Origin: Chloroflexota bacterium
GTDB lineage: Bacteria > Chloroflexota > Anaerolineae > B4-G1 > SLSP01
NCBI GenBank assembly: GCA_019873725.1
Contig: JAIOAS010000001.1
Span: 40,257-104,256 of the forward strand
Direction: 5' to 3'
DNA: 64,000 nucleotides
The notes under the pieces: model-generated
Seen by the model: only the letters and a program-made list of their open reading frames with translations
Database searches by the model: none
Told to the model about the DNA's origin: nothing
Shown here: positions 3,499 to 19,545 of the stretch, piece after piece
How positions within the stretch are numbered: position 1 is the first letter of the stretch
Layout: each line of letters starts with the position of its first letter
Translations under genes and position numbers: made by a program

Positions 3499-3528
3499 AT
3501 TATACCATATCGGAGGGGGTGAAATCAA
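3499..3528 (-). promoter_or_regulatory. sigma-70-like promoter on the minus strand (TTGATT-18nt-TATAAT)
   Basis: Reverse complement of 3499-3528 reads TTGATT tcaccccctccgatatgg TATAAT. Nearly identical promoter boxes occur at 38701-38730 and 52351-52380. Confidence 0.45.
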
Positions 3529-3591
3529 GGGTAGGAAACTGGAAACCCTATGGGCAAGAAAGGTTTACAACAATGGTTGTGCTCTAGCCTC

Positions 3592-4734
3592 TTAAAGAAT
3601 ACTAACCGCCTTGGCTATTTGGCTAATTGCCTCCCGTATATCGCTTTCCGTTGTCATTCGACCTAATGAAATGCGGATAGATGCACTGGCCTGTTCGCGC
3701 GTCAAGCCTATCGCTTGCAAGACATGCGAGGGTTCCATTGCGCCAGTATGACAAGCCGCGCCGGTGCTCATCATCAAACCTGGCAAACGGAGCAGCAATG
3801 CATCAGCTTCGACACCCTCGAAAGTGATATTGGTGGTGTTTGGCAAGCGGGGCGCGTGTTGAGCATTGATTCGCAGTTTGGGGATGGCTTCCAGCAAGCC
3901 ACGTTCCAATTCGGCTTGATACTCCCTCAGACGAGCACTTTCTTGAGGTAGTTCTGCGGCGACAATTTCGCAGGCTGCACCTAAGCCCACGATAGCTGGC
4001 ACATTCGAGGTTCCGGCACGCAGACCGGACTCCTGTCCGCCGCCCTCCAACATTGGGCGGATAGGAATAGAACGTGCTCCGTCACGTATGTACAATACGC
4101 CGATTCCTTTGGGACCGTACAACTTATGTGCGCTGCATGAGAGCAAATCGACACCCCACTCCCGCACATCACAGGGGATTTTGCCTATGGCTTGTGCCGC
4201 GTCCGTGTGAACCAGTGCGCCGTGATGGTGCGCGAGTTCCGCAATTCTGGCGATAGGCTGAAGTGTGCCGATCTCGTTATTAGCAGCTTGAATCGAGACC
4301 AGGAAAGTATCTTCACCTACAGCCTGTTCTAGCTCATCGAGCGATACTAGCCCATTGTAATCTACTGGAAGGATAATTTCCTCAAAGCCTTGTTCAACGA
4401 GCCGCTTGCAGGGGGCAAGTACAGCTTTGTGTTCGATGGCACAGGTGATGATCTTGTGGCGGGCAGTTGGAGCGTACTCGGCTGTTCCTAAAATCGCAAG
4501 GTGATTGCTTTCGGTAGCGCCGGAGGTGAAAACAATCTCAGCAGGGAGAGCCCCAATCAGCGCGGCGACCTGCTCGCGAGCGTTGTCCATTGCTCGCGCC
4601 GCTTTACGTCCCAAAACGTGCAGACCGTTAGCGGGGTTGCCGTAGACTTCACTGAAGTAGGGCAGCATCGCCTGTATAACACGAGGGTCACACGGGGTGG
4701 TAGCGTTATAATCCAGATATATGGGACTGCTCAT
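3592..4734 (-). CDS. class-V aminotransferase / cysteine desulfurase (IscS/NifS/DndA/SspA-like)
   Basis: N-terminal YLDYNATTP and SCSAHKLYGPKGIGVLYIR (PLP-lysine region) are typical of NifS/IscS. It is the last gene of the co-directional defence cluster. Confidence 0.8.
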   Translation of the reverse strand: MSSPIYLDYNATTPCDPRVIQAMLPYFSEVYGNPANGLHVLGRKAARAMDNAREQVAALIGALPAEIVFTSGATESNHLAILGTAEYAPTARHKIITCAIEHKAVLAPCKRLVEQGFEEIILPVDYNGLVSLDELEQAVGEDTFLVSIQAANNEIGTLQPIARIAELAHHHGALVHTDAAQAIGKIPCDVREWGVDLLSCSAHKLYGPKGIGVLYIRDGARSIPIRPMLEGGGQESGLRAGTSNVPAIVGLGAACEIVAAELPQESARLREYQAELERGLLEAIPKLRINAQHAPRLPNTTNITFEGVEADALLLRLPGLMMSTGAACHTGAMEPSHVLQAIGLTREQASASIRISLGRMTTESDIREAISQIAKAVSIL

Positions 4735-4765
4735 AGTTTATCCGGTGGACGAAGATGACGTCGGC

Positions 4766-6193
4766 CTACGACAACTCATACTGAATATCTTCATCATATT
4801 GCCGATACTCCGCATCCAACATATACAATTGATCCCAAACCAGTTGGCGCAGTTCTACTGCCGGGCGCACACAATAGATTTCAAAATCTTCCAGACTGAC
4901 CGCTCCGTGTGGAAATTGCAACTTCATTAGTCCGCTGGCAATCAGATGTACGGCGTCTTCGTTGCGTTTATAGCGTTTTCGCCCCGTTAGAGTGACAGTG
5001 CGGCTGACGTATTGATTGGCACTGACATCTTCACGCAACGCCAGCAAAGCATCACCGAAAAAATCGGATTTTAATCCTATGCCCTGTGCGAAGGATTCAC
5101 CGCTTAGTTTGCGTACCTTCCAACCAGGCAGGATGCCACGAAGACGGTCGAGAAAAGCTGTCTCTTGCAGGAATTCGGGAAGTTCTTTGACCAACGGTGA
5201 AAGGATAGGACGTTGTTCATTATCGAGCTGGATATTTGCCAGCATAACGAGGCTGCACGCACTGGCTGTCTCATACATACCGCCGCGCGTCAAGCGTCCA
5301 TTAGCTAAAAAGCCTTTGAGTCCGCCGACGATTTCCTGCGGTTTCTCGAACTTGAGTGTTTGGACTTCATCTAACACTACCACAGCAAAACGCGCTAGCA
5401 AGCCCCATTGTCCGCTGGCATTGTTGACGAACAACACCGCCGGAGAGACATTTCCACCACTCATCAATCGTACACGTGGATTGATGTTTTCGTACAAGTA
5501 ACTCTTGCCCGTGCCTTTGGGAGCGAGTTCCAGTAGGTGCAGATTCTTTTCCACAAGCGGAAGCAAACGGCAGAGCAAATAAGTCTTCTCATTCTCGGTA
5601 AATGCCCAGGGACTGTAACCCATTGAAGTTAACAGCAGGGCACGCCACTCATCGAGTGTAAAGGCCGCTCGTTTTTCTTTGAATATCTCCAGGTTCACTG
5701 AAGCCTGCATCGGCTTGAAAGAGGTTATAGCAATACCTTCCTGAGTATCCACTAACTCCACTACACCCCACATACCTTGTTTGAGTAGATCAGGGTATGC
5801 TTCCACAATACCGTCGCCAATCTGAACCTCGGATAACCCTAGAAGCTTGAGTTGCGCAACACGCTCCTTAACGCGCCGGGTGAGAACAACTTCAACCTCC
5901 ACCGGCGTAAGCACCTTGACCACTTCACCATTGAGCAGGCGATTTTTGATGATTCTGGCCTCGTCAGGCAAGGGCAGAAAACGATCGGCCCAGGTCTGGA
6001 TTTTGGTCAATTCTTCCGGGGTAACCGCACCTTCCCCTGGAGCAAGGCTATCCAGGATCCATTCGGCTACGTAGGCCGGCACACTGCGCCGGTTCAACTG
6101 GCTAGAGGGTAGACGTCGCTTGTCTATCGCCAAGCGACCAAAGACCTGGCTCGCCTTCTGGTTCAATGCTTCGGGGGTGAGGACATCACTCAT
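4766..6193 (-). CDS. brxL: P-loop ATPase, BrxL-like (BREX Lon-like ATPase family, short form)
   Basis: Walker A LAPKGTGKSYLYENI and Walker B VVVLDEVQTL. Positioned directly downstream of PglZ, as in BREX cassettes. 4-nt overlap with the pglZ stop. At 475 aa it is shorter than canonical BrxL (~680 aa), so the Lon protease part may be absent. Confidence 0.5.
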   Translation of the reverse strand: MSDVLTPEALNQKASQVFGRLAIDKRRLPSSQLNRRSVPAYVAEWILDSLAPGEGAVTPEELTKIQTWADRFLPLPDEARIIKNRLLNGEVVKVLTPVEVEVVLTRRVKERVAQLKLLGLSEVQIGDGIVEAYPDLLKQGMWGVVELVDTQEGIAITSFKPMQASVNLEIFKEKRAAFTLDEWRALLLTSMGYSPWAFTENEKTYLLCRLLPLVEKNLHLLELAPKGTGKSYLYENINPRVRLMSGGNVSPAVLFVNNASGQWGLLARFAVVVLDEVQTLKFEKPQEIVGGLKGFLANGRLTRGGMYETASACSLVMLANIQLDNEQRPILSPLVKELPEFLQETAFLDRLRGILPGWKVRKLSGESFAQGIGLKSDFFGDALLALREDVSANQYVSRTVTLTGRKRYKRNEDAVHLIASGLMKLQFPHGAVSLEDFEIYCVRPAVELRQLVWDQLYMLDAEYRQYDEDIQYELS

Positions 6194-8352
6194 AAGTCTA
6201 GCTCCTTGAGCAGGTCATCAGGCTGCTCGTAAAGTGTCTCAACCTGAAGGTGAGGAACGACTTCGCTCGAGAAAGTAGTGCCGTTGGGTTGGCGGAACAA
6301 CAAGGTGGCCTTTAGATTCTTTTTATCAGACTCGGTCGGCCAGGGTGTTAGGGAGAGGTTAAAGCGAGTCTCATCAAGCGGTGGAATCTGCCAGTTGCCG
6401 CCGACTTGCACACCATGAGAGAAAGAAACGCCTAAACACTCCAGTATTATCTGGCTGGTGTTGATAATCACAACAGTGATTGTTCCAACGTGCTTGGCCT
6501 CGCCCTTGCCACTGATCACAATATTCAGCGCGGGTGTTTTAGCATCGCGCACGAAGACAAACCACGGAACAATAACCTCTTCAGGAAATAATCCGCCGTG
6601 CGGGTAGGGATCATAGCCCGCTTTGTCGTTCTCAAAACTCTCTTCCCCCCAGGCAACCAGCATATCATGCGCCATTTCAAAGCGTTCACCGTGAACGGCT
6701 ATTGTACCAGCGGTTTCGTCTATCGAAAAACCATGCTCGTCAAACTCCAGGTCGAGTTTGCCCCAGGCGACTCGTCCATGGGCTTGCATTCCTTTAGGAG
6801 TTGGTAAGCAGCGTGGTGATTTGGGATTGAGCAGCCGTCCGTGGTCGCTGGTGATGATGATGTGTAGAATGACTGAGTTGGGAAGACTCTGGACAACTTC
6901 AGATATTGCCTGAAGGATGCTCTCCAACTTCGCATGCACTTCCCGTTCCCGCTTGTCTTCACTCTCAAAGTGATAAGCTTTGTCAGGCTGTTCAACACGC
7001 CAGAAAACAACTTCACCAGACCGGATGTCTTTCAGGCCGCGTTTAGGGGAGGTATGATCAGGCAGAATGTATCCCAAAGGAGGATACTGCGGTGATAGCC
7101 GCGGCGGTACGCCTTTGAGCAGGGCATCTTTGGCAAACTCGGTGACGGTGGGCATGGGCGCAAAGCAGTACGATTTTTGCTCAAGCTGCAAACGTTCTAT
7201 TTTGGCCCCCATGGTGTGGATGAAGTCTTCGGCGTCCCAGGCAGGCAGCCCATCCAGGACAACACACAAGGTGAGGGCTTGCGGCGCAGCATCATGCAGA
7301 CGAGCGGAAATTTGGAACGAGAGGTTGCCCGGTTCAAGCAACCAGCGTGGGTAACAGGAGAGATACCACCGGACGAAATCTTGAGCACGTTGGACAATAC
7401 ATGTTCGCGCCTGCTCATCGCCAAAACGCGCTTGCCAGCGACGATAGGGGAGATATTCGGCCTCGAACCAGGCTAACACTGCTGTGGGGTCCTGCGGTAG
7501 AGCAGAGGGTTCTGGCGGCGGTAAGCGTTCTTCGAGTGTCGCGAGCGTTTGCGTGTTGAGATACGGCTGAAGATCGCGTAGAATACCACGGGTAAGAAGA
7601 GGAGTGTTTTGCTCGTAGAACTGAACAGCCAGTTGCGCCAATTCCTGACGTAAGGCAACTGACATCGGGAAAGCAAACATTTGAGCAAAATATACGCCCT
7701 TGCTCTCAATCAACCTTTTCATCCAGGCAGATTTGATTTCTGTCAGCAATGGTTCAGGAACCGGTAGCGGAAATTCATCCAGACTGTCAAGTTTTTCATC
7801 CGCTGCGCCTAGCCATCGCCAGAGTATGGATTTAGCGCCTTCAGAGGTAAACACACGATATAGTCCAGCTTCAGAAGCATTTACCGACCGTCGCTCCAGC
7901 TCAGTGGCGAGATAGTGCAGAATGACAGTTTCGGCATCATCAGGCCGATGCGTGAACAGCCATAGCAGCCAACGCGCAGCATGTTCGCGCGAGGGCGCAC
8001 CTTGCCAAAGCGCATAATCGTCAGGATAACAACAGTTCAGGACAAACGTAGCAGTCATTTGTTCGGGTGAGGCTATGGCCATGCCCATTTTTAGCGCCAA
8101 CTTGTCCGCCTGCTGCTGCAATAAGGCCGGAAAGGTGCGCTGTAAAACGACACGGAGTGATTCTCGATAACAATAAGGTCGTCCGCGCAGGCTATAAAAA
8201 GCCTCTGCCCAGGCACTCAGGCGCTCGCCTCGAATCAGGAGTGGTGTATCATCGGTAGCATAACGTAAGAAATCTACTTCACTGGCGATGACCTGATAGC
8301 CAGGCGGTGCGGGTAGGTCGCCCTGACGGTCGAGTATAACTTCGGTATGCAT
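6190..8352 (-). CDS. pglZ: PglZ-domain protein (alkaline-phosphatase superfamily, BREX)
   Basis: VVLDGLPAWDAEDF and IIITSDHGRLL (the TxDHG motif characteristic of PglZ). Size ~720 aa. The start overlaps the brxC stop (ATGA). Confidence 0.7.
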   Translation of the reverse strand: MHTEVILDRQGDLPAPPGYQVIASEVDFLRYATDDTPLLIRGERLSAWAEAFYSLRGRPYCYRESLRVVLQRTFPALLQQQADKLALKMGMAIASPEQMTATFVLNCCYPDDYALWQGAPSREHAARWLLWLFTHRPDDAETVILHYLATELERRSVNASEAGLYRVFTSEGAKSILWRWLGAADEKLDSLDEFPLPVPEPLLTEIKSAWMKRLIESKGVYFAQMFAFPMSVALRQELAQLAVQFYEQNTPLLTRGILRDLQPYLNTQTLATLEERLPPPEPSALPQDPTAVLAWFEAEYLPYRRWQARFGDEQARTCIVQRAQDFVRWYLSCYPRWLLEPGNLSFQISARLHDAAPQALTLCVVLDGLPAWDAEDFIHTMGAKIERLQLEQKSYCFAPMPTVTEFAKDALLKGVPPRLSPQYPPLGYILPDHTSPKRGLKDIRSGEVVFWRVEQPDKAYHFESEDKREREVHAKLESILQAISEVVQSLPNSVILHIIITSDHGRLLNPKSPRCLPTPKGMQAHGRVAWGKLDLEFDEHGFSIDETAGTIAVHGERFEMAHDMLVAWGEESFENDKAGYDPYPHGGLFPEEVIVPWFVFVRDAKTPALNIVISGKGEAKHVGTITVVIINTSQIILECLGVSFSHGVQVGGNWQIPPLDETRFNLSLTPWPTESDKKNLKATLLFRQPNGTTFSSEVVPHLQVETLYEQPDDLLKELDL

Positions 8353-11300
8353 TATTCCCCCATCAGTTCGTGCAGACGTCTCAAGCACTGGCGGCGGGCT
8401 TCGATATCCTTGATTCGAATAAATCGGTCTTCGATTTGCGCAACAAGGTCTTCTTCCAGTCGCTTTTGCAAGGTTTGCTTGAGTTGCGCCAGCCGAGTAA
8501 GACTCTCGGAATCCAGAAAGGCAGGAGGTTTCTCCAGTTGCTGAAGCAAAGTGGCAGGATTTTCACCCCCCTTGTGGCGCTGGGCAAAAGTTTGCAACCA
8601 AGTCTTGGCCTCTTGGGTCTTCTGTTGATGTAGCTTCTCAATGTTTGCCTTTCTGGTCTCCAGCAAACGCCGCTGCTCAGTACTAAGCAAAGCTCCGTAA
8701 TGCGTTTCGGCTGTGGTGAGTTGTGCTTTGATAACACTCAGGTCATCTGGCGTGTTGCAGGGAAGCCTGTCAAGCTTTTGAAGTTCCTCGAAAAAGGCTT
8801 CGAGTTGGGTGATTCTTTGCTCAGTTTCACACAAGAGTTGATAGAGAGGTGTTCCTTGCACTGAGTCCAAATTGCGCAGTACCAGGTCGCGCTGGTCTCG
8901 CAATTTGTTTATACTGTCGGCATGCTCTATAGATTCAGGCAAAACAGCCGCAATTTGCTCGTATTGGTGTATACGGTTTTCGATTTGTGCGGATTTTTCA
9001 TCGCGTAATTTGGATGTTTTCGGGGAAAGATTAGTTAGTTGCAATAGTCTTTCACGGTAAGCATATAAGGTTGACAGTCCGTGAGAAGGTGCCATACGCT
9101 GCAACTCAGCAACAATCGCTTTTTCGCTTTCCTGTTGTTTTAGTTCCTCATAAACTTGTTTCAGTTTGTCCAGAGCTTCTTCTACGCGCTTTGCTGACAT
9201 GGGATACTCAGTCAAAGCTTTGCGGGCACGTTGGAGTTCCCGCTCGTGCGGTTTATAGTCGCTCAAATCCTTTAGACTTTCATATCGAGTGCAAAATGAT
9301 TCTAACGCGGTCTGCATGGCATCTTCCCATCGGGTTTGCAAAATGCATAGACCCGGTTCGGAAGGCATGACTTGCCGGGGAACAGGAAACTCTTTCAACG
9401 ATTCACGCAACTTGAGCAAGTCGTCAAAACTTGCGGATTGCAAAGCTCGCAACCATGCGCCAGCCCTTTGGTCATATTCTTGCGCCTGTTGCAACGCTTC
9501 CTCAAGGCGCGGACGCAATTGTTCGATCTCTTCTCGCTTGGCTTCGGGTAAACGTGGAGTGGCGAGCGCCTCTTCAAGTTTGACCAGAGCCTCATTCGCC
9601 TCAGCAATCGAGAAGGATTTGCCCTGTCGTATTTGCTCCAATACAGTGTTGGCTTGGTTAAATGCTTCGTCGGGTTTGGAGCGGCCGATAGCAAGCGGCG
9701 ATAGAATACAGATACGGTTAAGGAAGTCCTGCGGGTTTCTCGATTCGTCAAAGAGGCTCTTGAGCTGGCTTAGTGAAACGATCTTACCGCTCAACGACAA
9801 GCGAATTTCGTGCTGGTGGAAACCAATCCATGCGGATAGTAACAGAGTAAGCGTATTGTAATCGTGCCCATAGGGCGGATTGAGCAAGGTAAGCAAGACC
9901 GTTTGAACATGAACATCGTTACAGCCTGCAGGGAAGGTTTCTTCAAGTAAGTTCCAGGCTTCTTGTAGGGCCCGCGAGGTCGGGAGCTGAATAGTATAGT
10001 CTTGGGTTGTCAGCAAGCCCCATTTCTGCATCAAATAGAAGTTAGCCACCTGATATTGCATGTCTTTGTTTGCCAGATTGTGAATACTACTCCCTGCTGT
10101 ATCGCTGAACAACCAACGCGCGATATTTTGTACAGCCGTGCGCAACTGATTGACACCCTTGCCGCCTACAGGTCTGTCAGAAAAATCCACCCGATACACA
10201 TACGCCTGTTTATAGCACTCAGCAATAACCGCCTTAAGTGATAGATTCCTGAGCGTCTGGACCGAGGCGCGATACGCAACGGGTAAAACATAATCTTTCA
10301 AATTTCGCTGGATTTCTGCAAAGTTTCCTGTATCGCCGATCCACTCGTCTACAGCTCGCTTGAAGTTCGCCTCCGCCAATGCGCTTTCTTGTTGATACAT
10401 GACCGTCCCGATTTTTTCCCGTTCCGAACGTCCTAGAGTTTCAAGCGCTTTCATCCGTTGAGCCGTAGCCACCAGGCCAGGCGTAGGATGTTTGGGTAAA
10501 ACGATAATTACTGGCAAAGGATGAGCCAAAGTCCCTAATGCCGAGTCCAACACAGACGGAGCAGTTTGCTGTAATTGTATTTTCTCTTCCTCACTCTGCG
10601 CGATGAGCCAGATGACTACCCCGCGAGAACCCTCTTCAATGCCACTCACTCCTGCACGATAAGGTTGGAGTAGTTTTCTTAGTTCGTCTGTCGTGAATAG
10701 GTCAGCAGTGAATGCCGCTTGGCGTGGCGCCCAATCCCCAATGTTTCCATAATTCAAAGAGATCTCTAGGGCGGGTACTGCCGCGCTTATTTTGCTCATT
10801 AGCGCATGATCGACTGGCGTTTCATCTACTGCCTTTTGGATGATTTTTTCCGTTTCGGGCGAGCGAACTCCAGGAGGAAGGAGAGATGAAATCTTGTTAT
10901 AGGGATCGTACTGAATCACTCTGGCTTCGCTCAGTTCGCGTAAAAGAACCTTGATTCTTTCAACACTTAACCCACACAAATGGCTAAGTAAATCAAGTTG
11001 CGCATCTTTCCGCAGTTTCAGTCTGTCTAGTTCTGCCACAGCTTGCTGCAATAAGAGGGCTTTCAGAACGGCGCGATGTTCACCAGTGAGAGGGATAGGG
11101 GAACTCTCAAGTGCAGTGCGATAGGCTGTATACCAACTCTTGGAAATTTGCTCTCCGAAGAAATCTACCAGTGTAATTGCAAAGACGAAATTAGGACTAC
11201 CATCCAGCAATTGGGCTGGCTGTTGACGCTGGTCTTGCCACATCCGGCGCACAAATTCCAGGGCGGTACGCGGGCTTTCGCCCGCACCTGACTCAAAGTT

Positions 11301-12557
11301 GTGAAACGACAAAATGGCCGTTGTCAATGGATGCAGAGGAAAGCAACCTTTGACCACTTTTTGCGCTGCAGCCTCGACATTCCATTTTAATGCTTCGTCG
11401 TATCTTTTGGAAAAGTAGCTATATAGAGCTTCTCGGCCTCGCGCCAACGCTGGTTTTACAGCACGCTGTTCAAGCCAAGCCGCCCAGGCAACATCGTCTT
11501 GTTTCAGGTAAGCGTCAAGGACACTTTCCATAAGCGAAAACAGCCGAGCGCGTTTGTCCTTGGGCAAACGTTCTAGTTCTTTTTTAACGCTGTCGCGGCG
11601 TTGTCCGAGGGCATAAGTCTCGGCTACGGTATCGACATCATGTTGAGAAAAAGCTAGAAATGCACTTTTCCCAGGGCGCTTGCTGATACCGTTGAGCAAT
11701 TCTTGTAATTTACCTGCCACACGCGAGGCGGCGTACTTTTGCAGGAACAAACTAAATTCATCGAACAGAATCAGTAGACCACCGAAATGATAAGGCACAC
11801 ATACTTTGTCTACCGCCCACAACACCAATTCTTCCAGGTTGACCTCACCACCGAAATCAGGGTAGACGCCCGTGACCTGTTTGAATACCTCGCGGACTAA
11901 CGCATAGGCGCCCTGCTTGCGCAAGTCGCTCGTCAAATGGGCGAGATCAGTGTTTTGGACAGCCAGAAAACTTTCAGCCTTTTGGCGCGCTTCGCCGCTG
12001 AGGTTCTTCAGCCATGCGGCTGCATGAGCATACCAGAAGGGCATTTCCAAACTACGTGTGGCGTTGTGCTCTTGCAGCGCATGTTCTAGGGCACGCACAA
12101 AACCTTCCTGAAGATCGTCGCAGCGGTCACCTTGCAAGCGCACCACTAGAAATTCGCCCTTACTCTTCTTGAAATCGCGGTAGCCGGCCAACTGCGACTG
12201 GTTATTGAGCGCCTGTCCTAGCCGATCCAGCACAATCTTCACCTCTGGTGAATCTGCTGGGCGAGCGAAGAAGTTTGCCAACGCCAATGCTAGGTGGCTT
12301 TTGCCGCGCCCATAATTGGCGGTCAACACAATACGATAATCACCGCGTTCGACGGTGAAAGCTGTCTTTAGCGTATCCAATACGTCTTTGGCGGCGTAGT
12401 CGCGCTGGGCAGCGCCAATGGTCACCGGCGCATGAACGGTGAAAATGTACTTTTGGAGTAATTCGCGATTGAGCTTGGGGTCTTCATAGTCGCTTAGTTG
12501 CACGTCTGAGCGAAATTCACCCTGCATGTCCATGCTAACCAATTCTTCTATACGCAT
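8352..12557 (-). CDS. brxC: BrxC/PglY-like large P-loop ATPase (DUF499-type), 1401 aa
   Basis: N-terminal Walker A VLTANYGRGKSHLALALANFF (GxGKSH, as in BrxC). Very large protein with a coiled-coil-rich C-terminal half. Position upstream of pglZ. Confidence 0.65.
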   Translation of the reverse strand: MRIEELVSMDMQGEFRSDVQLSDYEDPKLNRELLQKYIFTVHAPVTIGAAQRDYAAKDVLDTLKTAFTVERGDYRIVLTANYGRGKSHLALALANFFARPADSPEVKIVLDRLGQALNNQSQLAGYRDFKKSKGEFLVVRLQGDRCDDLQEGFVRALEHALQEHNATRSLEMPFWYAHAAAWLKNLSGEARQKAESFLAVQNTDLAHLTSDLRKQGAYALVREVFKQVTGVYPDFGGEVNLEELVLWAVDKVCVPYHFGGLLILFDEFSLFLQKYAASRVAGKLQELLNGISKRPGKSAFLAFSQHDVDTVAETYALGQRRDSVKKELERLPKDKRARLFSLMESVLDAYLKQDDVAWAAWLEQRAVKPALARGREALYSYFSKRYDEALKWNVEAAAQKVVKGCFPLHPLTTAILSFHNFESGAGESPRTALEFVRRMWQDQRQQPAQLLDGSPNFVFAITLVDFFGEQISKSWYTAYRTALESSPIPLTGEHRAVLKALLLQQAVAELDRLKLRKDAQLDLLSHLCGLSVERIKVLLRELSEARVIQYDPYNKISSLLPPGVRSPETEKIIQKAVDETPVDHALMSKISAAVPALEISLNYGNIGDWAPRQAAFTADLFTTDELRKLLQPYRAGVSGIEEGSRGVVIWLIAQSEEEKIQLQQTAPSVLDSALGTLAHPLPVIIVLPKHPTPGLVATAQRMKALETLGRSEREKIGTVMYQQESALAEANFKRAVDEWIGDTGNFAEIQRNLKDYVLPVAYRASVQTLRNLSLKAVIAECYKQAYVYRVDFSDRPVGGKGVNQLRTAVQNIARWLFSDTAGSSIHNLANKDMQYQVANFYLMQKWGLLTTQDYTIQLPTSRALQEAWNLLEETFPAGCNDVHVQTVLLTLLNPPYGHDYNTLTLLLSAWIGFHQHEIRLSLSGKIVSLSQLKSLFDESRNPQDFLNRICILSPLAIGRSKPDEAFNQANTVLEQIRQGKSFSIAEANEALVKLEEALATPRLPEAKREEIEQLRPRLEEALQQAQEYDQRAGAWLRALQSASFDDLLKLRESLKEFPVPRQVMPSEPGLCILQTRWEDAMQTALESFCTRYESLKDLSDYKPHERELQRARKALTEYPMSAKRVEEALDKLKQVYEELKQQESEKAIVAELQRMAPSHGLSTLYAYRERLLQLTNLSPKTSKLRDEKSAQIENRIHQYEQIAAVLPESIEHADSINKLRDQRDLVLRNLDSVQGTPLYQLLCETEQRITQLEAFFEELQKLDRLPCNTPDDLSVIKAQLTTAETHYGALLSTEQRRLLETRKANIEKLHQQKTQEAKTWLQTFAQRHKGGENPATLLQQLEKPPAFLDSESLTRLAQLKQTLQKRLEEDLVAQIEDRFIRIKDIEARRQCLRRLHELMGE

Positions 12558-12577
12558 TATTCCCTCCCGAAGAATAC

Positions 12578-13042
12578 TTATTTCAGAACACCTTCGGCTA
12601 TCTGGGCCGTATAGCGGCGTTGCATATCAAAGGTAAATAGTTCGGATGTCTCTGCCGGCACGGCCAGTATCAATTTGATGCGCGGGTAAGGCAAGCCTTC
12701 CAACGCCTCGCGCCAGAAACATTCACGTTCGTTCATTTCCAATCCCAGCAAGAGCAAGTCCAAAGTATGCACCAATAAGCAATCTTGCGTTTGAGTTGAA
12801 TGGGCGAGTGTGCGCAGCAAATCCATAAGATGCCGATGTCCATCTGGGCGCGTAAGGCCGGAAAAATGCGTTCCTTCCGGCAAACTTTGCAGATAAGCTT
12901 GCCGTGCATCCAATGCTTGTACATTTAGACGCACAGCAATATCACCTTCCTGGCCGAGGTATGCGCGCGGCATCAACCATACCCCTACACCGGTCCGCGC
13001 GCCGGGTTGACGCAGTGCATCCCGCAGAGCTTCGATGTTCAT
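12578..13042 (-). CDS. hypothetical protein (154 aa), BREX-cluster accessory
   Basis: ORF tightly packed between the DUF4007-like gene and brxC. No motif. Confidence 0.45.
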   Translation of the reverse strand: MNIEALRDALRQPGARTGVGVWLMPRAYLGQEGDIAVRLNVQALDARQAYLQSLPEGTHFSGLTRPDGHRHLMDLLRTLAHSTQTQDCLLVHTLDLLLLGLEMNERECFWREALEGLPYPRIKLILAVPAETSELFTFDMQRRYTAQIAEGVLK

Positions 13043-13045
13043 CGC

Positions 13046-13858
13046 TTACCCCACATACATCTTTTGCAGAGCGTATTCCAGACTGGGCTGTAACAAGACC
13101 ACCTGATAGGGGCGGGATATCCGGTAAAGATCGAGCATACCCTCTTGTTTGAGTTGCAGGAGGAGGCGCGTTAGGCCTTCTTCGCCCAGCAAGAATATCG
13201 AGGCGAAATCCCCCTGGCTCAAGTCATCCAGATTGATCGTGAGCCGCTCATCATAGTGGGCGCGCCAATATTCGGACAGCGCGTAGCCCAAAGCCCAAAG
13301 CGGTGGTGCATCTGTTGAGAGCACGCGGTAAGTTTTGGTGTTTATCTCTTCCACCAAGCCCAAACGTCCTAATCCATCGGTTTTGAGATATGTGCCGAGA
13401 AAAACTGTGATGGTACTACGCACCGAATCCGGCGCGGGGTTTTTGCCTGCTTCTTGCTGAAGAAAGGCCGTCAGATCGGCAATCAGATCGGCGGCGGTGA
13501 AGATGTTGCCCGGCACAAAGCGCGTGCGCACCAAATAGTTCCAAAAGGCCGTAGGGCCATGTGGCGCGGCCAGGTGATAATGCAGCAGCCATTGTGTACT
13601 GACTTTTTCCAGGGTGGGATCATGTTGGGCGACAAAGCGTCCGAAGACGGTCAGTGCATTGCTCTTGTCCAACAACCCGGCACGTAAGGCGTAACGCGGC
13701 ATAGCTTCCTGATAGACTGTTCCTAAGTCTGTACTTTTTCCCAAATCTTCTCGTTTAAAGCCAGGTTTATATTTGGCGAGAGAAATGACTTTAGCAATGG
13801 ATGAACGGGACAGAGAAAACGTACGATGAAAGGTCAGGCTCATATATTCTCTCCTCAT
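13046..13858 (-). CDS. DUF4007-like protein, paralog of the 18356..19273 product
   Basis: Aligns with the 305-aa protein: AMPRYALRAGLLD vs AAAIRYWGLALGLLN, and STQWLLHYHLAAPHGPTAFWNYLVRTRF vs GSLWLLHWLLASNQERGLVWYLIFSRYF. Start adjusted to avoid overlap with the PAPS-reductase gene. Confidence 0.5.
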   Translation of the reverse strand: MRREYMSLTFHRTFSLSRSSIAKVISLAKYKPGFKREDLGKSTDLGTVYQEAMPRYALRAGLLDKSNALTVFGRFVAQHDPTLEKVSTQWLLHYHLAAPHGPTAFWNYLVRTRFVPGNIFTAADLIADLTAFLQQEAGKNPAPDSVRSTITVFLGTYLKTDGLGRLGLVEEINTKTYRVLSTDAPPLWALGYALSEYWRAHYDERLTINLDDLSQGDFASIFLLGEEGLTRLLLQLKQEGMLDLYRISRPYQVVLLQPSLEYALQKMYVG

Positions 13859-14682
13859 TATAGATGACAAATAAGACAACTTTCATCTCCTGATTCGTTC
13901 GCTAAGAAAACGTCTGCTAAGGTCAAATTTACTCTTGATTGCTGTTGACGTTCCAGACGGCGGCTGTACTCTTCTCGAATCACTCTTTGACGTTCGGGAG
14001 AACGTAATTCTCTTAAGCTTTCTCGAGAAGACCACGTATATCGTTCGCCAGTTTCAAGGTTTTCTCTCTCGAAACTTTCGGCTCTTTCATATAAATCTTT
14101 ATGGTTCTCTAGTAGCCCCAACCATTCAATTTTTTGTTGAAAGAAGCAAAAATAACAACCCGAACGCGAACGCCATTCGTAGTATTTGGGCAAACCAAGC
14201 CCACTCTCGTCTAAAATTCGAACGACGTCTTCCCGCTTTATATCATCCTCTATAAAAGGGTAACGCGCTATGATATTTGGTTTGGTAGAAACATAACCTT
14301 TTCGATGTTGTTCATCGGCTCGTATACCAATGTAGTTATAACAAATATCATTACTGATTTCTTCTTCAAAAGGCTTAATCTTTAGGTATTCTGTACACCA
14401 ACGGACTTGTGCTGAAGGTAGAAATCCGCCTCTAGCTTTGAGCATATCTTCAAACGATTGTCTTGCTCTAATCTTTTTAATCTCTCTTCCTAAAAATACT
14501 TCCAATTTGTCCAAATATTCGTACGTTTCCGGCAGTTCTTCGCCTGTATCGCAAAAGACATATTCCAGGTTGGGAATACGGCCGCGCAGATAAATAGCCA
14601 GGGCAGTGCTGTCTTTGCCGCCGGAAAGCGAAACGATGTGCCGTTCAGGACGAATCAAATTTACCTCCTTCAGTCCACACAT
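13858..14682 (-). CDS. brxP: PAPS-reductase-family PP-loop ATP pyrophosphatase (BrxP / DndC / SspD-like)
   Basis: PP-loop IVSLSGGKDSTALAIYL. Cys clusters CYFCFF and CLICHL. GC ~40% versus ~65% in flanking DNA. Confidence 0.8.
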   Translation of the reverse strand: MCGLKEVNLIRPERHIVSLSGGKDSTALAIYLRGRIPNLEYVFCDTGEELPETYEYLDKLEVFLGREIKKIRARQSFEDMLKARGGFLPSAQVRWCTEYLKIKPFEEEISNDICYNYIGIRADEQHRKGYVSTKPNIIARYPFIEDDIKREDVVRILDESGLGLPKYYEWRSRSGCYFCFFQQKIEWLGLLENHKDLYERAESFERENLETGERYTWSSRESLRELRSPERQRVIREEYSRRLERQQQSRVNLTLADVFLANESGDESCLICHL

Positions 14683-14936
14683 ACTTCAATCATTTTGCCG
14701 AAAACCTGCGCCAGCCGACAGGCCACATACAAGGAGACGCGCCGTTTGCCAGACTCAATCTGGGAAAGATAGGAACGGTCAATACCTGCTTGTCGCGCGA
14801 CTTCATCTTGGGTCATCTGGACTTTCTCTCGCTCGGTTTTTAACCGTTGCCCAAAATGTTGGTAGAACTCGTCTTGTTTACTACTGTCAACAAACGAATC
14901 CCCCCGCTTTTCTATGCGGGGGGATTCGTTCATCAT
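14670..14936 (-). CDS. XRE-family helix-turn-helix transcriptional regulator
   Basis: MTQDEVARQAGIDRSYLSQIESGKRRVSLYVACRLAQVF is a classic Cro/CI-type HTH. Low GC. Confidence 0.6.
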   Translation of the reverse strand: MMNESPRIEKRGDSFVDSSKQDEFYQHFGQRLKTEREKVQMTQDEVARQAGIDRSYLSQIESGKRRVSLYVACRLAQVFGKMIEVCVD

Positions 14937-15018
14937 TTCACAATGGGTTAATTCTATGAGAGGTGATACCATTGAGGCCTCCTATGTTGATTGGTGTTTG
15001 GGGTATCTAACGCATTGA

Positions 15019-18000
15019 TCATTGTTGCCCGGCCTTTTTCTGTTGTTTTAACAAGAGCTGCAAAGCCAAGTTGATTACTGCCGGATCATAATTATAGCGA
15101 CTGAGAAAATGGGTCAAGTCTTGTGTGAGCATCTCGGCGCGTTCCCGTGTTTCATCAGATGCTGTTGTCATTTGCGTGAGCGTATCATTTGTGTGTTCTT
15201 GCCACAAAACACCGATATATTGCGCTTGCGCAGAGAAACGTTCAACATCGGCGTCCGTCCACATACGCGCCGGACGGTTGGCAATCACAGCTAAAACACT
15301 TTCCAATGCAGCGCGTGAATCCGCAGCTTCGGCGGCGCGCTTGAGTAGGGGCAGCAAAATGGGGTGTGAAACTCTCGAAACGAGTTGAGTGGCAAGTTGA
15401 CGGAACGATTCCCAACTCGCTTCGCCATCGGGCAAACCGCAAGCCGTCAGCCAGGCATCACGCGCCCAAATTAACAAGTTGGGTGTAGCATTGACCAACG
15501 CATCCAGCGCCGTATTCAGCCGCTCGAAAAAGACCTCGAAGCGATCCTGATCAAATTCCCTTTCCTCGAACGCAGGCAATCCCAACGCTTCCGGCACTTC
15601 CACAAACAGGAACCTTTCGGGAGAGCGTGATGTTTCCACCGCATGGCGCAACTTGAGAGCGATTTCAGGCAGACGGTGGGTGCGCTGGGCATATTCAGGC
15701 AAGGCTTTCATACGGCTAATCACCGTCCGTGCAACCGGCATCACGTAGGGTGACACACCCAGACCACGCGCCATACGTGCCAATACGGCAGCCCGCAATC
15801 CCGTCACGCGGCAGCCTGCCAGTGAGAACATCTCCGGGCGCCGCAGCAGTACTTCCCAATCCGCTACACTCGGCTCGACAAGCAAAGTCCCTTCTTTGTA
15901 GAGCGTCATTTCGTTCTCATAAACCTTGTAGAAAACGGCTAGCATAACCGGTATAACGCCCTGTGTCATGCCAAACGGTGGGGCACTCAGGCGGCCATAG
16001 AGATCGGTCACGGGCTGGGGGTCTGGCAAGCCAGTAAAGACGAAATCATAAATGGCTTGCCATGCGGCAGTCAGATGCAGGCTATTTTCGGCGGGCGGGG
16101 CAATGCGCCAGTTTTCTCCATCCAGGCGGTGCATATCGCCTTTGTGCAGCAAGGCTTCGTACATACTTCGCTCTGGCGGGAACCCCTGGATACCCAAAAT
16201 GGGTTGTTCAGCGCGGGTAAGAATGCCCTCGATGAGCGTGCGGCGCGCTGCTGCCCCCTGCGAGGTCAGCTCGCGGCGGTTGAGCAATTCGTTCCACACC
16301 CGAGGCGAGTGGGGGTAGAGCGCATCGCAAATTTCCGAAAGCAATCCCGAAAGACCGCGTTGCACGTGCTCGGAGACTTTGGCTCCCTGATAGAACCACT
16401 GACAGCCTGCCAGAGCAGAAATCCGATGCGGATTGATAGCTTCATCCAGTTCCAAACGAATCATGCGCTCAATAGAAGCCAACCGCGCCCGCCATTCACG
16501 TCGGGCCACCGGATCGTCACGCAGTTCAGGCGTGTTTTCGCGCACCCAATGTAAACCGCGCAACTCCTGGGCCAGTTCCTTCAGGCGGATTGCACGACCC
16601 GCTACACCGACGACAATCTCTGAGCGGCTGCTGAATGCCTCTGATTGTGCCCATCGCGTGAACTGGTCTATTTCGGTCAATGTACCAGGCAGACATAAAA
16701 GCACCAATCCGCTGGCCTCAGGAGAAGAAATGAGCGAAACCTTGTCCAGATTAAAGGAATCGACATAACGCACATCGAAAAAGCGCTGGGTGCCGGTCTG
16801 ATAGCTATGCCGGCGGGGAAAAAGAGGTCTTGGCGGCAGATACCCTTGCAGCACCTCGGCAATGCTGAAGGTCATCCCCAGCATACCGCGGGCAGTATGT
16901 AAACGTTCCTCAATGTCCACATCACTGCCTTGCCAGACAGCGTAAGTGTCGTTGAAGCGACGATAAACAATAAGCGAGCGACGGCGTAACGCATCTAGTC
17001 CAGCACGTAGGGCAGATTCGTTCCAATCGGGAGCGTAAAACGCGCTCAGGATCATCGCCTCAGTCGCCTGTAGAGGGCCAATTTCCCCTAACCAGTTGAG
17101 CAAGCTAATCGTTTTCAGCAGATCGGTTTCGATTGGGCTAAGATTGGGTGTGTTCTCCAACCGTTCCAATGCTTCGGTCAACGGACGAGCGTGGCCTGAA
17201 GCGTAAATCCGTCCCTGATAATTAGCTGCCAGATAGTCGAACAAATCGGGGAGGCGTAGGAACTCTCCACTTGTGTGGCCGGCGAGAAATTCCTGAAAGC
17301 CAAACGGTTCCTGCGAAGCCAAATAGGCAAAAATCGAACGCTCGTTTTGTGCTAGGCGACGAAAGAAATACGGTAAGGCAACAAACGCACTTGGGTGAAG
17401 GGGATATGCCCGGCAAGCGAGAGTGGTGAATTCGGAGAGGGGTATCGTTGCCGGACGCCAGCCAGCTTCTTCCACGGCTTGTATTGTTTCAGCAAAGGCC
17501 AGTGTCAATGCTGGTGGATCGGGCGTATCGTTCAAGGCACGCGCCAGTAAACGCATTTGCTGAACTGGCGGTTCCAGGAAGGGAATATCCTCAAAACGGC
17601 CTTGCACCTTAGCCCATTCGCGCTGTGTGGTGCTGTCCAGCAAGGCGGCATATTGCTCAAAGGCCTGGTGCAAAATGCCCGCGAAGACCAGCGGCCGCTC
17701 ACCGCTGCGGGCAGCAAACTCGGCTAACTCCTGCAAAAGATAGACATCGCTCTCGTATGGATGGGCGGCGGCGTGCTCCAGAGCTTTGCCCAACTCATCA
17801 AACAGGATTAATGCCCCGCGCGCGCCGGAAGGCGTTTGACTCACTGTTTCCAAGAAGGCTTCCACCCAGCGAAGAAAGACACGGCTATCGGCATGGCGGG
17901 CTTCCTCAAGGCTTTCCCGCAATGCAGGCGCAAACACTCCGGTTTTCAACGTCTGCTCAAATCCACGCGCCAGGCACTCCTGAAGCGGCGCCCGTGCCCC

Positions 18001-18363
18001 CGTCACCGCTACCGTGACGAAACCATCGTTTCCTCCTATCTGCTCTTGCAATCGCTCGGTCAGCAAGGGATCGGACTGCTCCAACATCTTCCAGGCAATC
18101 GTATGTCCCGTTTGTCGCGCATCCAGCAAATGAGCGAGGAACAACCCAAAGAACGATTTGCCCGAACCATACGGTCCGGTCAATATCCAGGCTCTGGCAT
18201 TGCCCGCCAGTCCATCCACAACGCGCCCCAACGCGGCCAACGCCTGTGCTGTCAGAGTGTATCCAACCAGCAGATCGCCGTTAGGTAGATCGCTTTCCAG
18301 CCGCACGGCGCGTAAATTGTTTTGACGAAGGTGAATCACCTCACGTAGCAGCGTCTCAGTCAT
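15019..18363 (-). CDS. second BrxC-like / DUF499-type large P-loop ATPase (SspC-like?), ~1115 aa
   Basis: Walker A ILTGPYGSGKSFFGLFLAHLL. N-terminal region is alignable with the 1401-aa BrxC-like protein. The start is set at MTETLLREV. Confidence 0.55.
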   Translation of the reverse strand: MTETLLREVIHLRQNNLRAVRLESDLPNGDLLVGYTLTAQALAALGRVVDGLAGNARAWILTGPYGSGKSFFGLFLAHLLDARQTGHTIAWKMLEQSDPLLTERLQEQIGGNDGFVTVAVTGARAPLQECLARGFEQTLKTGVFAPALRESLEEARHADSRVFLRWVEAFLETVSQTPSGARGALILFDELGKALEHAAAHPYESDVYLLQELAEFAARSGERPLVFAGILHQAFEQYAALLDSTTQREWAKVQGRFEDIPFLEPPVQQMRLLARALNDTPDPPALTLAFAETIQAVEEAGWRPATIPLSEFTTLACRAYPLHPSAFVALPYFFRRLAQNERSIFAYLASQEPFGFQEFLAGHTSGEFLRLPDLFDYLAANYQGRIYASGHARPLTEALERLENTPNLSPIETDLLKTISLLNWLGEIGPLQATEAMILSAFYAPDWNESALRAGLDALRRRSLIVYRRFNDTYAVWQGSDVDIEERLHTARGMLGMTFSIAEVLQGYLPPRPLFPRRHSYQTGTQRFFDVRYVDSFNLDKVSLISSPEASGLVLLCLPGTLTEIDQFTRWAQSEAFSSRSEIVVGVAGRAIRLKELAQELRGLHWVRENTPELRDDPVARREWRARLASIERMIRLELDEAINPHRISALAGCQWFYQGAKVSEHVQRGLSGLLSEICDALYPHSPRVWNELLNRRELTSQGAAARRTLIEGILTRAEQPILGIQGFPPERSMYEALLHKGDMHRLDGENWRIAPPAENSLHLTAAWQAIYDFVFTGLPDPQPVTDLYGRLSAPPFGMTQGVIPVMLAVFYKVYENEMTLYKEGTLLVEPSVADWEVLLRRPEMFSLAGCRVTGLRAAVLARMARGLGVSPYVMPVARTVISRMKALPEYAQRTHRLPEIALKLRHAVETSRSPERFLFVEVPEALGLPAFEEREFDQDRFEVFFERLNTALDALVNATPNLLIWARDAWLTACGLPDGEASWESFRQLATQLVSRVSHPILLPLLKRAAEAADSRAALESVLAVIANRPARMWTDADVERFSAQAQYIGVLWQEHTNDTLTQMTTASDETRERAEMLTQDLTHFLSRYNYDPAVINLALQLLLKQQKKAGQQ

Positions 18364-19273
18364 AATACCCCCGCAACAACTCATATCCCTGTTCAGGCAA
18401 GATGGTATGCAGGTATATCTGGCGCAATCCGGCGGTCTCTTGCAAGCGCAGCGCACCGTTCGTGAGAGATTCTAATTGCTCTAAATAGGTCATGACACTG
18501 TTTTCATCCAGTTTGAAAATCTGCCCTGGACTGCCTGGTTGATAAACACATTCGTCTACAGTTGCCGTGCGTCGCTGAGCAGCTATTGTGTTCAGGAACC
18601 CAAACAAGGCATAGCCGAACACAGCCGCAGGCAGTGAAGATTTAGCGCCAATGTCAAAACGATAAACCCCATCGCCGGGCGAAAGGCGTAGTAAGTTCAG
18701 ATCCACCAGTGGGCAATCTAGACTTTCCTCGAAGTTTCCCCCCTTACGACCTTGTGACGGGACGTAAGTACGTAGAAAGACATCCACTTCGCGCGTAACC
18801 ATGCCTTCGGTTGTCTCAATTCCCATTTGCGTCAATTGTTTCCTGATGAATTCTGTGATTTGCTGCTTGCGAAACTCAACATCGAAATAGCGTGAAAAGA
18901 TAAGATACCATACTAATCCTCGCTCTTGATTACTGGCTAACAGCCAGTGCAATAACCAAAGCGAGCCAATATCCTCCAGATAGGGGTCCCAGCCGCCATC
19001 GGCCAGCAGGCTGCGCCCCAGTTTAGAAGGTTCGATAGCGCGGGTCTGACTGCCCGCGCCGGGAATATAGTTCAGCAATCCTAACGCCAATCCCCAGTAC
19101 CGAATAGCAGCAGCCATATTCTTCCCGACACCCAATTCCACAAAGGCATCTTCGCGGCTGAAAACTAATGGATCACGCAGAGCGGCATCCAACCCTTTCT
19201 TTAGCCAGCCCTGCCGAAAAACGAATTTTTCATGTCCGCCAAAAGGTGGGCGGGATGAGTGTGTTACGGACAT
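18356..19273 (-). CDS. DUF4007-like protein (possible SspB-like), first gene of the defence operon
   Basis: 305 aa with FVFRQGWLKKGLDAAL near the N-terminus. Paralogous to 13046..13858. Assignment to the DUF4007/SspB family is from memory of that family and needs an HMM check. Confidence 0.45.
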   Translation of the reverse strand: MSVTHSSRPPFGGHEKFVFRQGWLKKGLDAALRDPLVFSREDAFVELGVGKNMAAAIRYWGLALGLLNYIPGAGSQTRAIEPSKLGRSLLADGGWDPYLEDIGSLWLLHWLLASNQERGLVWYLIFSRYFDVEFRKQQITEFIRKQLTQMGIETTEGMVTREVDVFLRTYVPSQGRKGGNFEESLDCPLVDLNLLRLSPGDGVYRFDIGAKSSLPAAVFGYALFGFLNTIAAQRRTATVDECVYQPGSPGQIFKLDENSVMTYLEQLESLTNGALRLQETAGLRQIYLHTILPEQGYELLRGYYD

Positions 19274-19511
19274 TCCTGTTAACTCCCTCGTTAAGTACTT
19301 ATTCTAGAGAACGCCCCCGACGTCTGACGCGCGGGGGCGGGTATGGTATGCTTATGCCCACTACGGCGCGTCATCGCCGATAGTGCCTTTGGGTTGTGGC
19401 TCAAAGGAAGCCCGAGCTGTTCAGAGCTGCGGGTCTATTTTTTTTTGTTTTGGAGGTAAGTATAGGCAGGATGGAGAAAGGGTCAAGTATCGAAACTTGC
19501 GATTCATCAAA

Positions 19512-19545
19512 CTGGCATCCTGAATCCACGATTCAGGATGCCAGT
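19512..19545 (-). terminator. perfect 15-bp stem-loop downstream of the OB-fold gene (possible terminator)
   Basis: ctggcatcctgaatc-cac-gattcaggatgccag. On the minus strand it is followed by UUUGAUG (a weak U-tract). Confidence 0.4.

Follow-up and report, generated by a model that had tools for sequence, protein, structure and literature searches.

The 64,000-nucleotide stretch of Chloroflexota bacterium DNA analysed here (the window; contig JAIOAS010000001.1 of assembly GCA_019873725.1) carries on its minus strand, at 3592-19273, ten co-directional and tightly packed open reading frames (ORFs) that form a predicted anti-phage island, in which a full SspABCD set for writing phosphorothioate (PT) into DNA appears to be joined to a block of effector genes like those of bacteriophage exclusion (BREX) systems. 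In our judgement the island is probably a two-module, PT-based defence system of BREX type, of the kind published as 'sspBCDB-brxCZL' (Yuan et al., bioRxiv 2024; Nat Commun 2026, PMC12914056). The evidence lies in the identities of the genes and their intact catalytic motifs, an operon-like packing, the strict conservation of the cassette in related loci and the separability of its two modules. The locus is a new example of an island type already described bioinformatically and not a new system; a first-pass annotation of this DNA had offered, as one possibility, a 'previously undescribed Ssp-BREX hybrid', a label that the published name supersedes. The island was acquired horizontally; it has a GC content of 0.514, compared with 0.645 for a 10-kb flank.

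The ten reading frames lie where the first-pass annotation had put them and contain the motifs SGGKDS, GRGKSH and TSDHG that it had listed. Two of its lengths change: SspC has 1114 residues and not 1115, and the second DUF4007 protein (DUF4007b below), which had been given 277 residues, has 265 by gene call and 277 only from an upstream TTG. The likely gene starts were taken from gene calls on an identical public contig (L001) together with inspection of start codons (Table 1). Taken in gene order, the junctions measure -8, 46, -13, 14, 3, 20, -1, -4 and 31 nt (range -13 to 46), a packing consistent with a single operon. Families were assigned with the PADLOC, Pfam and NCBIfam libraries.

Four of the genes, encoding SspB, SspC, SspD and SspA, would make up a complete SspABCD PT writer, and in PADLOC all four products score as Ssp proteins at 1e-85 to 1e-299. 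SspB (PADLOC SspB 1.7e-85; Pfam DUF4007 262 bits) aligns over residues 7-288 with the solved SspB 6JUF/6LB9 (E 3.7e-41). SspC is a P-loop ATPase of the DUF6079/BrxC type with Walker A GPYGSGKS and Walker B LILFDE, matched by the SspC model at 1.4e-299 and also by the BrxC model PDLC02478 at 1.4e-250. SspD keeps SGGKDS at residues 20-25 and CxxC pairs at 176/179 and 269/272, and reaches 4.9e-108 (359 bits) on the SspD model as against 4.1e-11 (39.8 bits) on BrxP and about 1e-6 on DndC. It is 45-59% identical, over its full length, to plasmid-borne genes annotated as PAPS-reductase family (contexts inspected in Thermomicrobium roseum and Pseudanabaena galeata), and a plasmid search with SspD returned full-length matches solely to stand-alone genes of this family. 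The cysteine desulfurase (PADLOC DndA 3.8e-153, SspA 1.3e-152; Pfam Aminotran_5 3.4e-88) has HK at 203-204, with the pyridoxal phosphate lysine, and Cys328 in STGAACHTG; it scores under the NCBIfam equivalog cut-offs for NifS, IscS and DndA. Its gene begins 31 nt after brxL, the place that it takes in all related loci, and diverges in step with SspC and SspD. We rejected a housekeeping IscS on this conserved position and linkage, and the first-pass view of the desulfurase as a system component is upheld. A Dnd system was rejected as well: DndC models match about 40 residues around the PP-loop region at roughly 1e-6, and no island protein matches DndD or DndE in PADLOC or NCBIfam. The mark expected of an SspABCD writer is PT in a single-stranded CpsCA-type motif. 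The island resembles SspABCD-SspE and SspABCD-SspFGH systems in its four writer proteins, with their strong matches and intact motifs; it differs in the partner, which here is a five-gene BREX-like block lying between sspD and sspA, and none of the ten island proteins matches SspE, SspF, SspG or SspH in PADLOC.

The tenth gene encodes an XRE-type helix-turn-helix (HTH) protein (Pfam HTH_3 1.2e-13; PADLOC HTH_VI and restriction-modification 'control protein' models). Among related loci it was found by tblastn only in the window/L001 and in L016, and it is probably a variable accessory, a local and optional regulator. The GC content of sspD (0.413) and of the HTH gene (0.479) lies below the 0.50-0.55 of the other eight island genes; this low GC, together with the restriction of the HTH gene to these loci, suggests a recent replacement or insertion of the segment 13858-14972.

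The five remaining genes (DUF4007b, p154, a 1401-aa protein, PglZ and a short BrxL) are best described as a putative BREX-like effector block without a modification enzyme of its own; no methyltransferase family is matched by any of the ten island genes in the three libraries. PglZ is matched over its full length by PADLOC PDLC02549 (2.4e-90) and reaches 24.7 bits on Pfam PglZ, just below the 25-bit cut-off. Residues D367, T402/T404, D503-H504, H525 and H585 are invariant in five homologues of 35-59% identity, and the motif ITSDHGR is present. BrxL is recognised by NCBIfam TIGR02688 (501.7 bits; cut-off 329.3), by PADLOC (4.8e-211) and by Pfam BrxL_ATPase (3.3e-94) and BrxL_N (3.3e-19), with Walker A GTGKS and Walker B VVVLDE, and lacks a Lon-protease-like C-terminal domain in Pfam and NCBIfam.

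The 1401-aa protein has no match in PADLOC, Pfam or NCBIfam, and its family profile finds nothing among PDB sequences save a chance plectin hit on the helical tail, and it was placed solely by structure prediction with Foldseek and by profile-profile comparison. It has a Walker A motif YGRGKSH (residues 82-88) and a Walker B motif LLILFDE. Its homologues are full-length proteins of about 1400 aa, mostly from metagenome-assembled genomes (MAGs) of Chloroflexota, a few of which carry PF19557 (DUF6079 / BrxC-PglY_N). An AlphaFold2 model of residues 1-1050 (mean predicted local distance difference test score, pLDDT, 86.6) was compared with the PDB, and the top seven Foldseek hits were all BrxC chains of Acinetobacter type 1 BREX (E 8.7e-9, probability 1.0, TM-score on target 0.56); the last 400 residues form helices, which agrees with the coiled-coil tail known from BrxC. 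In hhalign the family aligns with the operon's own SspC family (98.6%, E 6e-16, 812 columns) and more closely with the BrxC-like family of the methyltransferase-linked cassettes described below (99.85%, E 1e-30, 893 columns). The protein would thus be BrxC-like by predicted structure, in the absence of a BrxC sequence-model match, and its closest relative appears to be the ATPase of the methyltransferase-linked block, nearer than SspC. These assignments alter the scheme of the first-pass annotation. Its families PglZ, BrxL, desulfurase and DUF4007 (the last now confirmed by Pfam for both the 305-aa and the 277-aa protein) stand, and its division into BREX core and PT accessories is inverted: the 1115-aa ATPase that it counted as an accessory is the SspC of a full writer and also the PADLOC BrxC match, the 1401-aa protein is BrxC-like by structure only, and the PAPS-reductase-fold enzyme that it called BrxP is of SspD type and unfused to DUF4007. 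Writer versus effector is the better division.

The small protein p154 has no match in PADLOC, Pfam or NCBIfam; Pfam scans of 35 members of its family and a profile search of PDB sequences were equally negative, and by sequence it is not DUF1788. Its predicted structure is confident (pLDDT 90.6) and shows an AAA+-type alpha/beta domain, with no Walker A motif in the protein and with weak, sub-threshold AAA+ matches only in Foldseek. Because of this fold class and its position in the operon, we tentatively regard p154 as a candidate BrxB-like, inactive P-loop subunit. All BREX systems reportedly contain a BrxB-like module, and in 64% of type 4 taxa an inactive STAND module (iSTAND) is fused to the N-terminus of PglZ (Rakesh and Krishnan, NAR 2026, PMC12839542). 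The p154 profile, run against 1.84 billion representatives, recovered 187 cluster representatives; almost all of these are free-standing and about 150-165 aa long, none is a p154-PglZ fusion, and an identity with the PglZ-fused iSTAND is unsupported at this sensitivity. One family member, P0420 (297 aa), has twice the usual length, with its p154-like region at residues 150-281, and the part before that region may derive from a fused partner, for instance a truncated DUF4007.

With these assignments, the effector block resembles type 1 BREX (brxA-brxB-brxC-pglX-pglZ-brxL) in its order of putative DNA-binding protein, small protein that may be a degenerate P-loop subunit, BrxC-like ATPase, PglZ and BrxL, in the match of the 1401-aa model to solved type 1 BrxC and in the conserved PglZ residues. 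It differs in having no PglX, a DUF4007 and not a DUF1819 protein in the BrxA position, p154 in place of DUF1788, and a BrxL without the Lon-like domain. Type 4 BREX, in the definition restated in PMC12914056 and PMC12839542, shares with the island PglZ, a short BrxL, a PAPS-reductase-fold enzyme, DUF4007, a DUF6079-type ATPase, a desulfurase (in 56% of type 4 taxa) and the lack of a methyltransferase. In contrast to type 4, the island has no fused BrxP (the genes are separate, with a 14-nt gap, and the PAPS reductase is stand-alone and SspD-type), has both the DUF4007 protein and the large ATPase in duplicate where type 4 has a single one, and has the stand-alone 154-aa AAA+-like gene in place of a PglZ-fused iSTAND. 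To judge from its genes, then, the locus departs from canonical type 4 in one defining feature, the fused BrxP, and shares the others, with BrxC represented by two paralogues (SspC by sequence, the 1401-aa protein by structure), and it shows all of the features of SspABCD that sequence can test.

The position of DUF4007b is where an alternative reading takes hold. The protein matches Pfam DUF4007 (7.6e-19, 68 bits), is 24% identical to SspB and reaches E 0.047 against solved SspB; sspD and DUF4007b lie side by side, arranged like the halves of fused BrxP, and the PADLOC BrxP model covers SspD at profile positions 135-317 and, weakly (2.9e-4), DUF4007b at 546-743, leaving SspB unmatched. The island could on these grounds be a canonical type 4 BREX locus in which SspD and DUF4007b are a split BrxP and the 1401-aa protein is the PT-writing BrxC, with SspB, SspC, SspA and the HTH protein as add-ons or as a second, redundant writer. 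We think this unlikely. SspD scores 359 bits on its own model versus 40 on BrxP, and the BrxC model PDLC02478 picks out the 1114-aa SspC, whereas the 1401-aa protein matches no BrxC or SspC model. DUF4007b diverges in step with p154, the 1401-aa gene, PglZ and BrxL and not with SspC or SspD, and a DUF4007 gene occupies the same position in the methyltransferase-linked cassettes, where DUF4007b and a 1401-aa-type ATPase accompany PglZ and BrxL with no PAPS reductase present, so that their role there needs no PT chemistry. DUF4007 has been modelled as BrxA-like (PMC12839542), and we assign DUF4007b to the effector module, by analogy in a putative BrxA-like role. Nor is the close spacing of sspD and the second DUF4007 gene general: in many relatives (L002 at 8250-8706; L010, L022, L027, L028, L040, L043 and L044) they lie about 450-500 nt apart, sometimes with a tiny ORF between them, as against 14 nt in the window. 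The spacer lies exactly where we propose that the writer ends and the effector starts, and a promoter or another regulatory element inside the operon may be located in it.

The cassette is conserved as a whole. Related loci were gathered from homologues of the 1401-aa protein and from a PglZ-alignment scan of species-representative genomes, and each was then searched by tblastn with the ten window proteins. The order (SspB)-SspC-SspD-DUF4007b-p154-p1401-PglZ-BrxL-SspA holds in every one of the distinct loci with enough flank (24/24), an arrangement conserved far beyond chance. Four Hymenobacter loci keep the order too, with p154 missed by tblastn; in the one inspected (L042) the place of p154 is taken by an ORF of 170 aa that shares the motif LD.LL...ER..FW. 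Across the related loci, identity to the 1401-aa protein falls as low as 26-34%. The other related loci end at contig edges and contain nothing contradictory; no locus breaks the order, and a fused, BrxP-like SspD-DUF4007 was found in none of them. The hosts include Anaerolineae, Caldilineales, Thermoflexales, Thermomicrobia and Hymenobacter, the phyla represented are Chloroflexota, Bacteroidota and Cyanobacteriota, and partial, compatible loci come from WOR-3 and Armatimonadota (Chthonomonadales). Cultured carriers are T. roseum DSM 5159, Anaerolinea thermolimosa, Levilinea saccharolytica and Hymenobacter spp. The first-pass proposal that PglZ/BrxL-type BREX genes and phosphorothioation genes are linked in one conserved unit is borne out by this constancy of order.

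It might still be asked whether the two sets of genes are neighbours by chance, an orphan Ssp modification system lying beside a BREX remnant that has lost its modification enzyme. Defence genes do cluster in islands, a caution that adjacent systems can act independently is given in Yuan et al., and the two modules have partly separate histories. However, sspA stands at the far end of the operon, so that Ssp genes bracket the brx genes; the gaps are at most 46 nt, with several start/stop overlaps; the order stays identical, over several phyla, wherever a related locus has sufficient flank; and no recovered locus with a PglZ of this type lacks both Ssp genes and a methyltransferase. We consider mere adjacency highly improbable.

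Annotated complete records with the cassette include the T. roseum DSM 5159 megaplasmid (NC_011961.1, cassette at 90215-105778) and a P. galeata plasmid. On the former (L050, 17970-25635) the cassette is directly flanked by a CRISPR-Cas module of type III-B (Cmr) together with a CARF protein, and thus belongs to a defence island of a cultured strain. The latter (L052, 2593-5045) carries an interrupted, cyanobacterial version: a MazF-type toxin pair precedes sspD, a Uma2-family endonuclease gene separates sspD from the second DUF4007 gene, and the BrxC-like protein has 1803 aa.

The separability of the two modules is best seen in the most distant PglZ match, from Paenibacillus macerans, where all Ssp genes are absent and the order is an Eco57I-type N6-methyltransferase, directly followed by DUF4007, a 176-aa protein, a 1383-aa SspC/BrxC-like ATPase, PglZ and BrxL. 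A search with the P. macerans ATPase yields a large family, some members with PF19557, and the same methyltransferase plus five-gene layout appeared in all three of the contexts inspected (Sporomusa carbonis, Clostridium estertheticum and a Chloroflexia MAG). This sister cassette of Firmicutes and Chloroflexia comprises an Eco57I/MmeI-type N6-methyltransferase, DUF4007, a P-loop protein of about 150-176 aa, a BrxC-like protein of about 1370 aa, a PglZ of about 785 aa and a short BrxL, and we take it, on the evidence of its genes, to be a probable methylation-based sister of the PT cassette. The two have the same five-gene effector block in the same order, and the large ATPase of the sister cassette is the closest relative of the 1401-aa protein; they differ in the N6-adenine methyltransferase that replaces SspABCD, in the longer PglZ and in the small protein, which in the methyltransferase-linked cassettes keeps a Walker A-like GxxxSGKT and aligns to a broadened p154 profile (65% probability, E 5.9e-5). 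An effector block standing behind a methyltransferase, free of Ssp genes, supports the split between writer and effector, and every recovered locus with a PglZ of this type has either Ssp genes or a methyltransferase, none being without a modification module. On an Abditibacteriota plasmid (L053, 1733-14383), gene sizes match the sister cassette and all genes are annotated hypothetical; it is a candidate look-alike by size alone.

Divergence likewise splits into two blocks, which is supportive only. In 14 close loci, identity to the window co-varies within the set SspC, SspD and SspA (Spearman rho 0.62-0.67) and within the set DUF4007b, p154, p1401, PglZ and BrxL (rho 0.43-0.85), with no co-variation for pairs taken from different sets (rho -0.64 to 0.21). 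By this measure SspA travels with the writer genes despite lying at the opposite end of the operon, and DUF4007b with the effector. The methyltransferase-linked variant, the stand-alone 154-aa gene and the two-module co-variation were not found described in the BREX and PT literature surveyed, which is no proof of novelty.

That type 4 BREX makes PT has been established by genetics and mass spectrometry (Yuan et al., PMC12914056). According to the same study, BrxP (an SspD-SspB fusion), BrxC (an SspC homologue) and the desulfurase suffice for PT in Bacteroides salyersiae, with brxZ and brxL dispensable, and 0.2-17% of PT consensus sites are modified. The suggestion of the first-pass annotation that a type 4 variant marks DNA by PT was thus largely in print already; the same applies to the link between desulfurase and type 4, a cysteine desulfurase being reported in 56% of type 4 taxa (Rakesh and Krishnan, PMC12839542). 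'sspBCDB-brxCZL type' islands were named in 40 strains, including Cyanobacteria and Deinococcota (PMC12914056). The window matches their order (sspB, sspC, sspD, a second sspB-like DUF4007 gene, brxC, brxZ (pglZ) and brxL) and adds the XRE HTH gene between sspC and sspD, in a host that the taxonomy of the homologues also points to as Chloroflexota-like; where Yuan et al. list the type, the 154-aa gene goes unmentioned and the label lacks the terminal desulfurase.

In the model that we favour, SspA would take sulfur from cysteine as a persulfide on Cys328, and SspD, together with the DUF4007 protein SspB and the ATPase SspC, would put it on the DNA backbone at short sequence motifs, so marking host DNA as self. 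The pair of DUF4007b and the BrxC-like ATPase, paralogous to SspB and SspC, would scan DNA and assemble on unmarked sites; p154, as a degenerate P-loop protein placed like BrxB, would couple this assembly to PglZ; and PglZ (a putative metal-dependent phosphodiesterase or nuclease) and the DNA-binding AAA+ ring BrxL would block the replication of unmarked phage DNA. The product of the XRE HTH gene may act as a local, optional regulator. A precedent for part of this exists in type 1 BREX, where PglZ is described as a metal-dependent nuclease that binds BrxB (PMC12205998). By analogy with characterised writers, the island's Ssp proteins should synthesise PT. That PT is the self mark used by the brx block, and that this block stops replication of unmarked DNA, we infer only from the parallel with BREX systems that use methylation and with the sister cassette that carries a methyltransferase; shared site recognition between the writer and the paralogous DUF4007/ATPase pair is speculation.

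The logic could also run the other way. The effector might sense host PT as an activating or positioning signal, much as SspE would, or PT might serve mainly non-defence (redox or epigenetic) functions, the brx block being independent of it. The restriction partner in SspABCD-SspE is called phosphorothioation-sensing in the title of Xiong et al. 2020 (cited in PMC12839542), and the low fractional modification in B. salyersiae is awkward for a model in which each unmodified site is foreign. We nevertheless judge such schemes improbable: by PADLOC, Pfam and NCBIfam the island has neither an SspE-like DUF262 or HNH domain nor any domain known to bind PT, and the effector block homologous to its own is coupled to an N6-methyltransferase, in the manner of classical BREX with its protection of self DNA by methylation.

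Several points weigh against the model of PT as a self mark read by the brx block. With the three libraries, none of the effector proteins shows a domain for binding PT of the sort that McrA-type, PT-dependent enzymes have in their sulfur-binding domain. DUF4007b may have a writer role, given that it directly follows sspD as in fused BrxP and is weakly matched by the BrxP model that leaves SspB aside. The co-variation rests on 14 phylogenetically non-independent loci and on identity to a single reference, the window. Finally, the anti-phage activity of variant type 4 systems awaits investigation, as Yuan et al. themselves state (PMC12914056).

It is conceivable, if rather less than an even bet, that DUF4007, the small P-loop protein, the BrxC-like protein of about 1400 aa, PglZ and the short BrxL form a self-contained effector cassette that is independent of the type of modification and plugs into either SspABCD or an N6-adenine methyltransferase. 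One effector serving two chemically unrelated marks would point to indirect reading and not to a dedicated binding pocket for PT or N6-methyladenine, for example through DUF4007/BrxC paralogues that share the site specificity of the writer. As a corollary, canonical type 4 BREX with its four genes would have arisen from the nine-gene layout by streamlining, through fusion of sspD and DUF4007b into BrxP and loss of one DUF4007/ATPase pair.

Published genetics demonstrate PT synthesis by type 4 BREX; PT-dependent exclusion of phage by PglZ and BrxL would be its predicted counterpart. In canonical type 4 systems the writer and the effector share fused or common proteins, whereas in this island they are distinct, paralogous proteins, and each should therefore be cleanly deletable. 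The main value of the locus is accordingly as a naturally unfused system, present in cultured hosts, in which to dissect how a BREX effector reads its mark, and the methyltransferase-swapped sister cassette offers a natural comparison of one effector reading two marks. For annotation, 'hypothetical' proteins of 1401 and 154 aa, a label that their T. roseum counterparts carry in RefSeq, can be relabelled BrxC-like and, tentatively, BrxB-like.

Table 1. Genes and boundary elements of the island (positions in the window) and, below them, methyltransferase-linked cassettes (positions in the respective locus).
Feature	Position	Strand	Description
sspB	18356-19273	-	305 aa; DUF4007 protein; predicted PT-writer subunit (nickase / DNA binding)
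sspC	15019-18363	-	1114 aa; ORF open to 18456; start as in the L001 call, 8-nt overlap with sspB
XRE-type HTH regulator	14670-14972	-	100 aa; between sspC and sspD
sspD	13858-14682	-	274 aa; PP-loop ATP pyrophosphatase, PAPS-reductase fold
DUF4007b (second DUF4007)	13046-13843	-	265 aa; 277 aa if the upstream TTG is used
p154	12578-13042	-	154 aa; small AAA+-like alpha/beta protein without Walker A
brxC-like ATPase	8352-12557	-	1401 aa; ORC/Cdc6-type AAA+ N-terminus, middle domains, long helical C-terminus
pglZ	6190-8352	-	720 aa; alkaline-phosphatase superfamily; start overlaps brxC-like stop by 1 nt
brxL	4766-6193	-	475 aa; short form, BrxL_N + BrxL_ATPase
sspA/dndA-type cysteine desulfurase	3592-4734	-	380 aa; 31 nt after brxL
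Perfect 16-bp hairpin (inverted repeat)	19511-19545	-	Upstream boundary, after the preceding ORF
Sigma-70-like site TTGACC-16-TATACT	19486-19459	-	10/12 positions match; ~185 nt before sspB start
Methyltransferase-linked cassette, L046	308-12824
Methyltransferase-linked cassette, L047	7121-17920
Methyltransferase-linked cassette, L048	5430-17893
Methyltransferase-linked cassette, L049	5268-17944

The surroundings of the island add some minor observations. The boundary elements in Table 1 are pattern matches only, the count of promoter-like sites in the region not exceeding that in shuffled sequence, and tRNA and Rfam scans of the window gave no match. Two palindromic elements, each some 65-70 bp long and made up of ACGTAAA/TTTACGT heptamers (CGTAAAGACGTAAAACGTAA ... 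CTTACGTTTTACGTTTTACGC), lie in the same orientation at 2982-3055 and 20024-20095 and bracket the low-GC island; a 20-mer of the element has 6 matches versus 0 expected. We rejected them as attachment (att) sites: related, partial copies occur at about 42047-42066 and 51666-51692 (around 42.05 kb and 51.67 kb) in the window, so that the repeats are not island-specific and are better read as dispersed palindromic elements, which could be elements of the repetitive extragenic palindromic (REP) kind, terminators or an insertion hot spot.

An ORF of 149 aa at 19569-20018 (likely product about 130 aa, from MNNISL...) with no Pfam match separates the upstream repeat from the island, and after it comes the 16-bp hairpin. 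Beyond the upstream repeat, the flanking ORFs at 20098-26047 are rich in Pro, Thr and Ala and secreted-looking, with no Pfam match where tested, in keeping with a host of Chloroflexota type. On the other side, the roughly 590 bp downstream of the desulfurase gene (3000-3591) hold no convincing ORF and no Rfam match; a minus-strand promoter-like sequence, TTGATT-18-TATAAT with a TG extension (3528-3499), is among the better sites of the region. Further out, in the high-GC flank, a 260-aa ORF with an RNase III domain occupies 169-951 on the minus strand.

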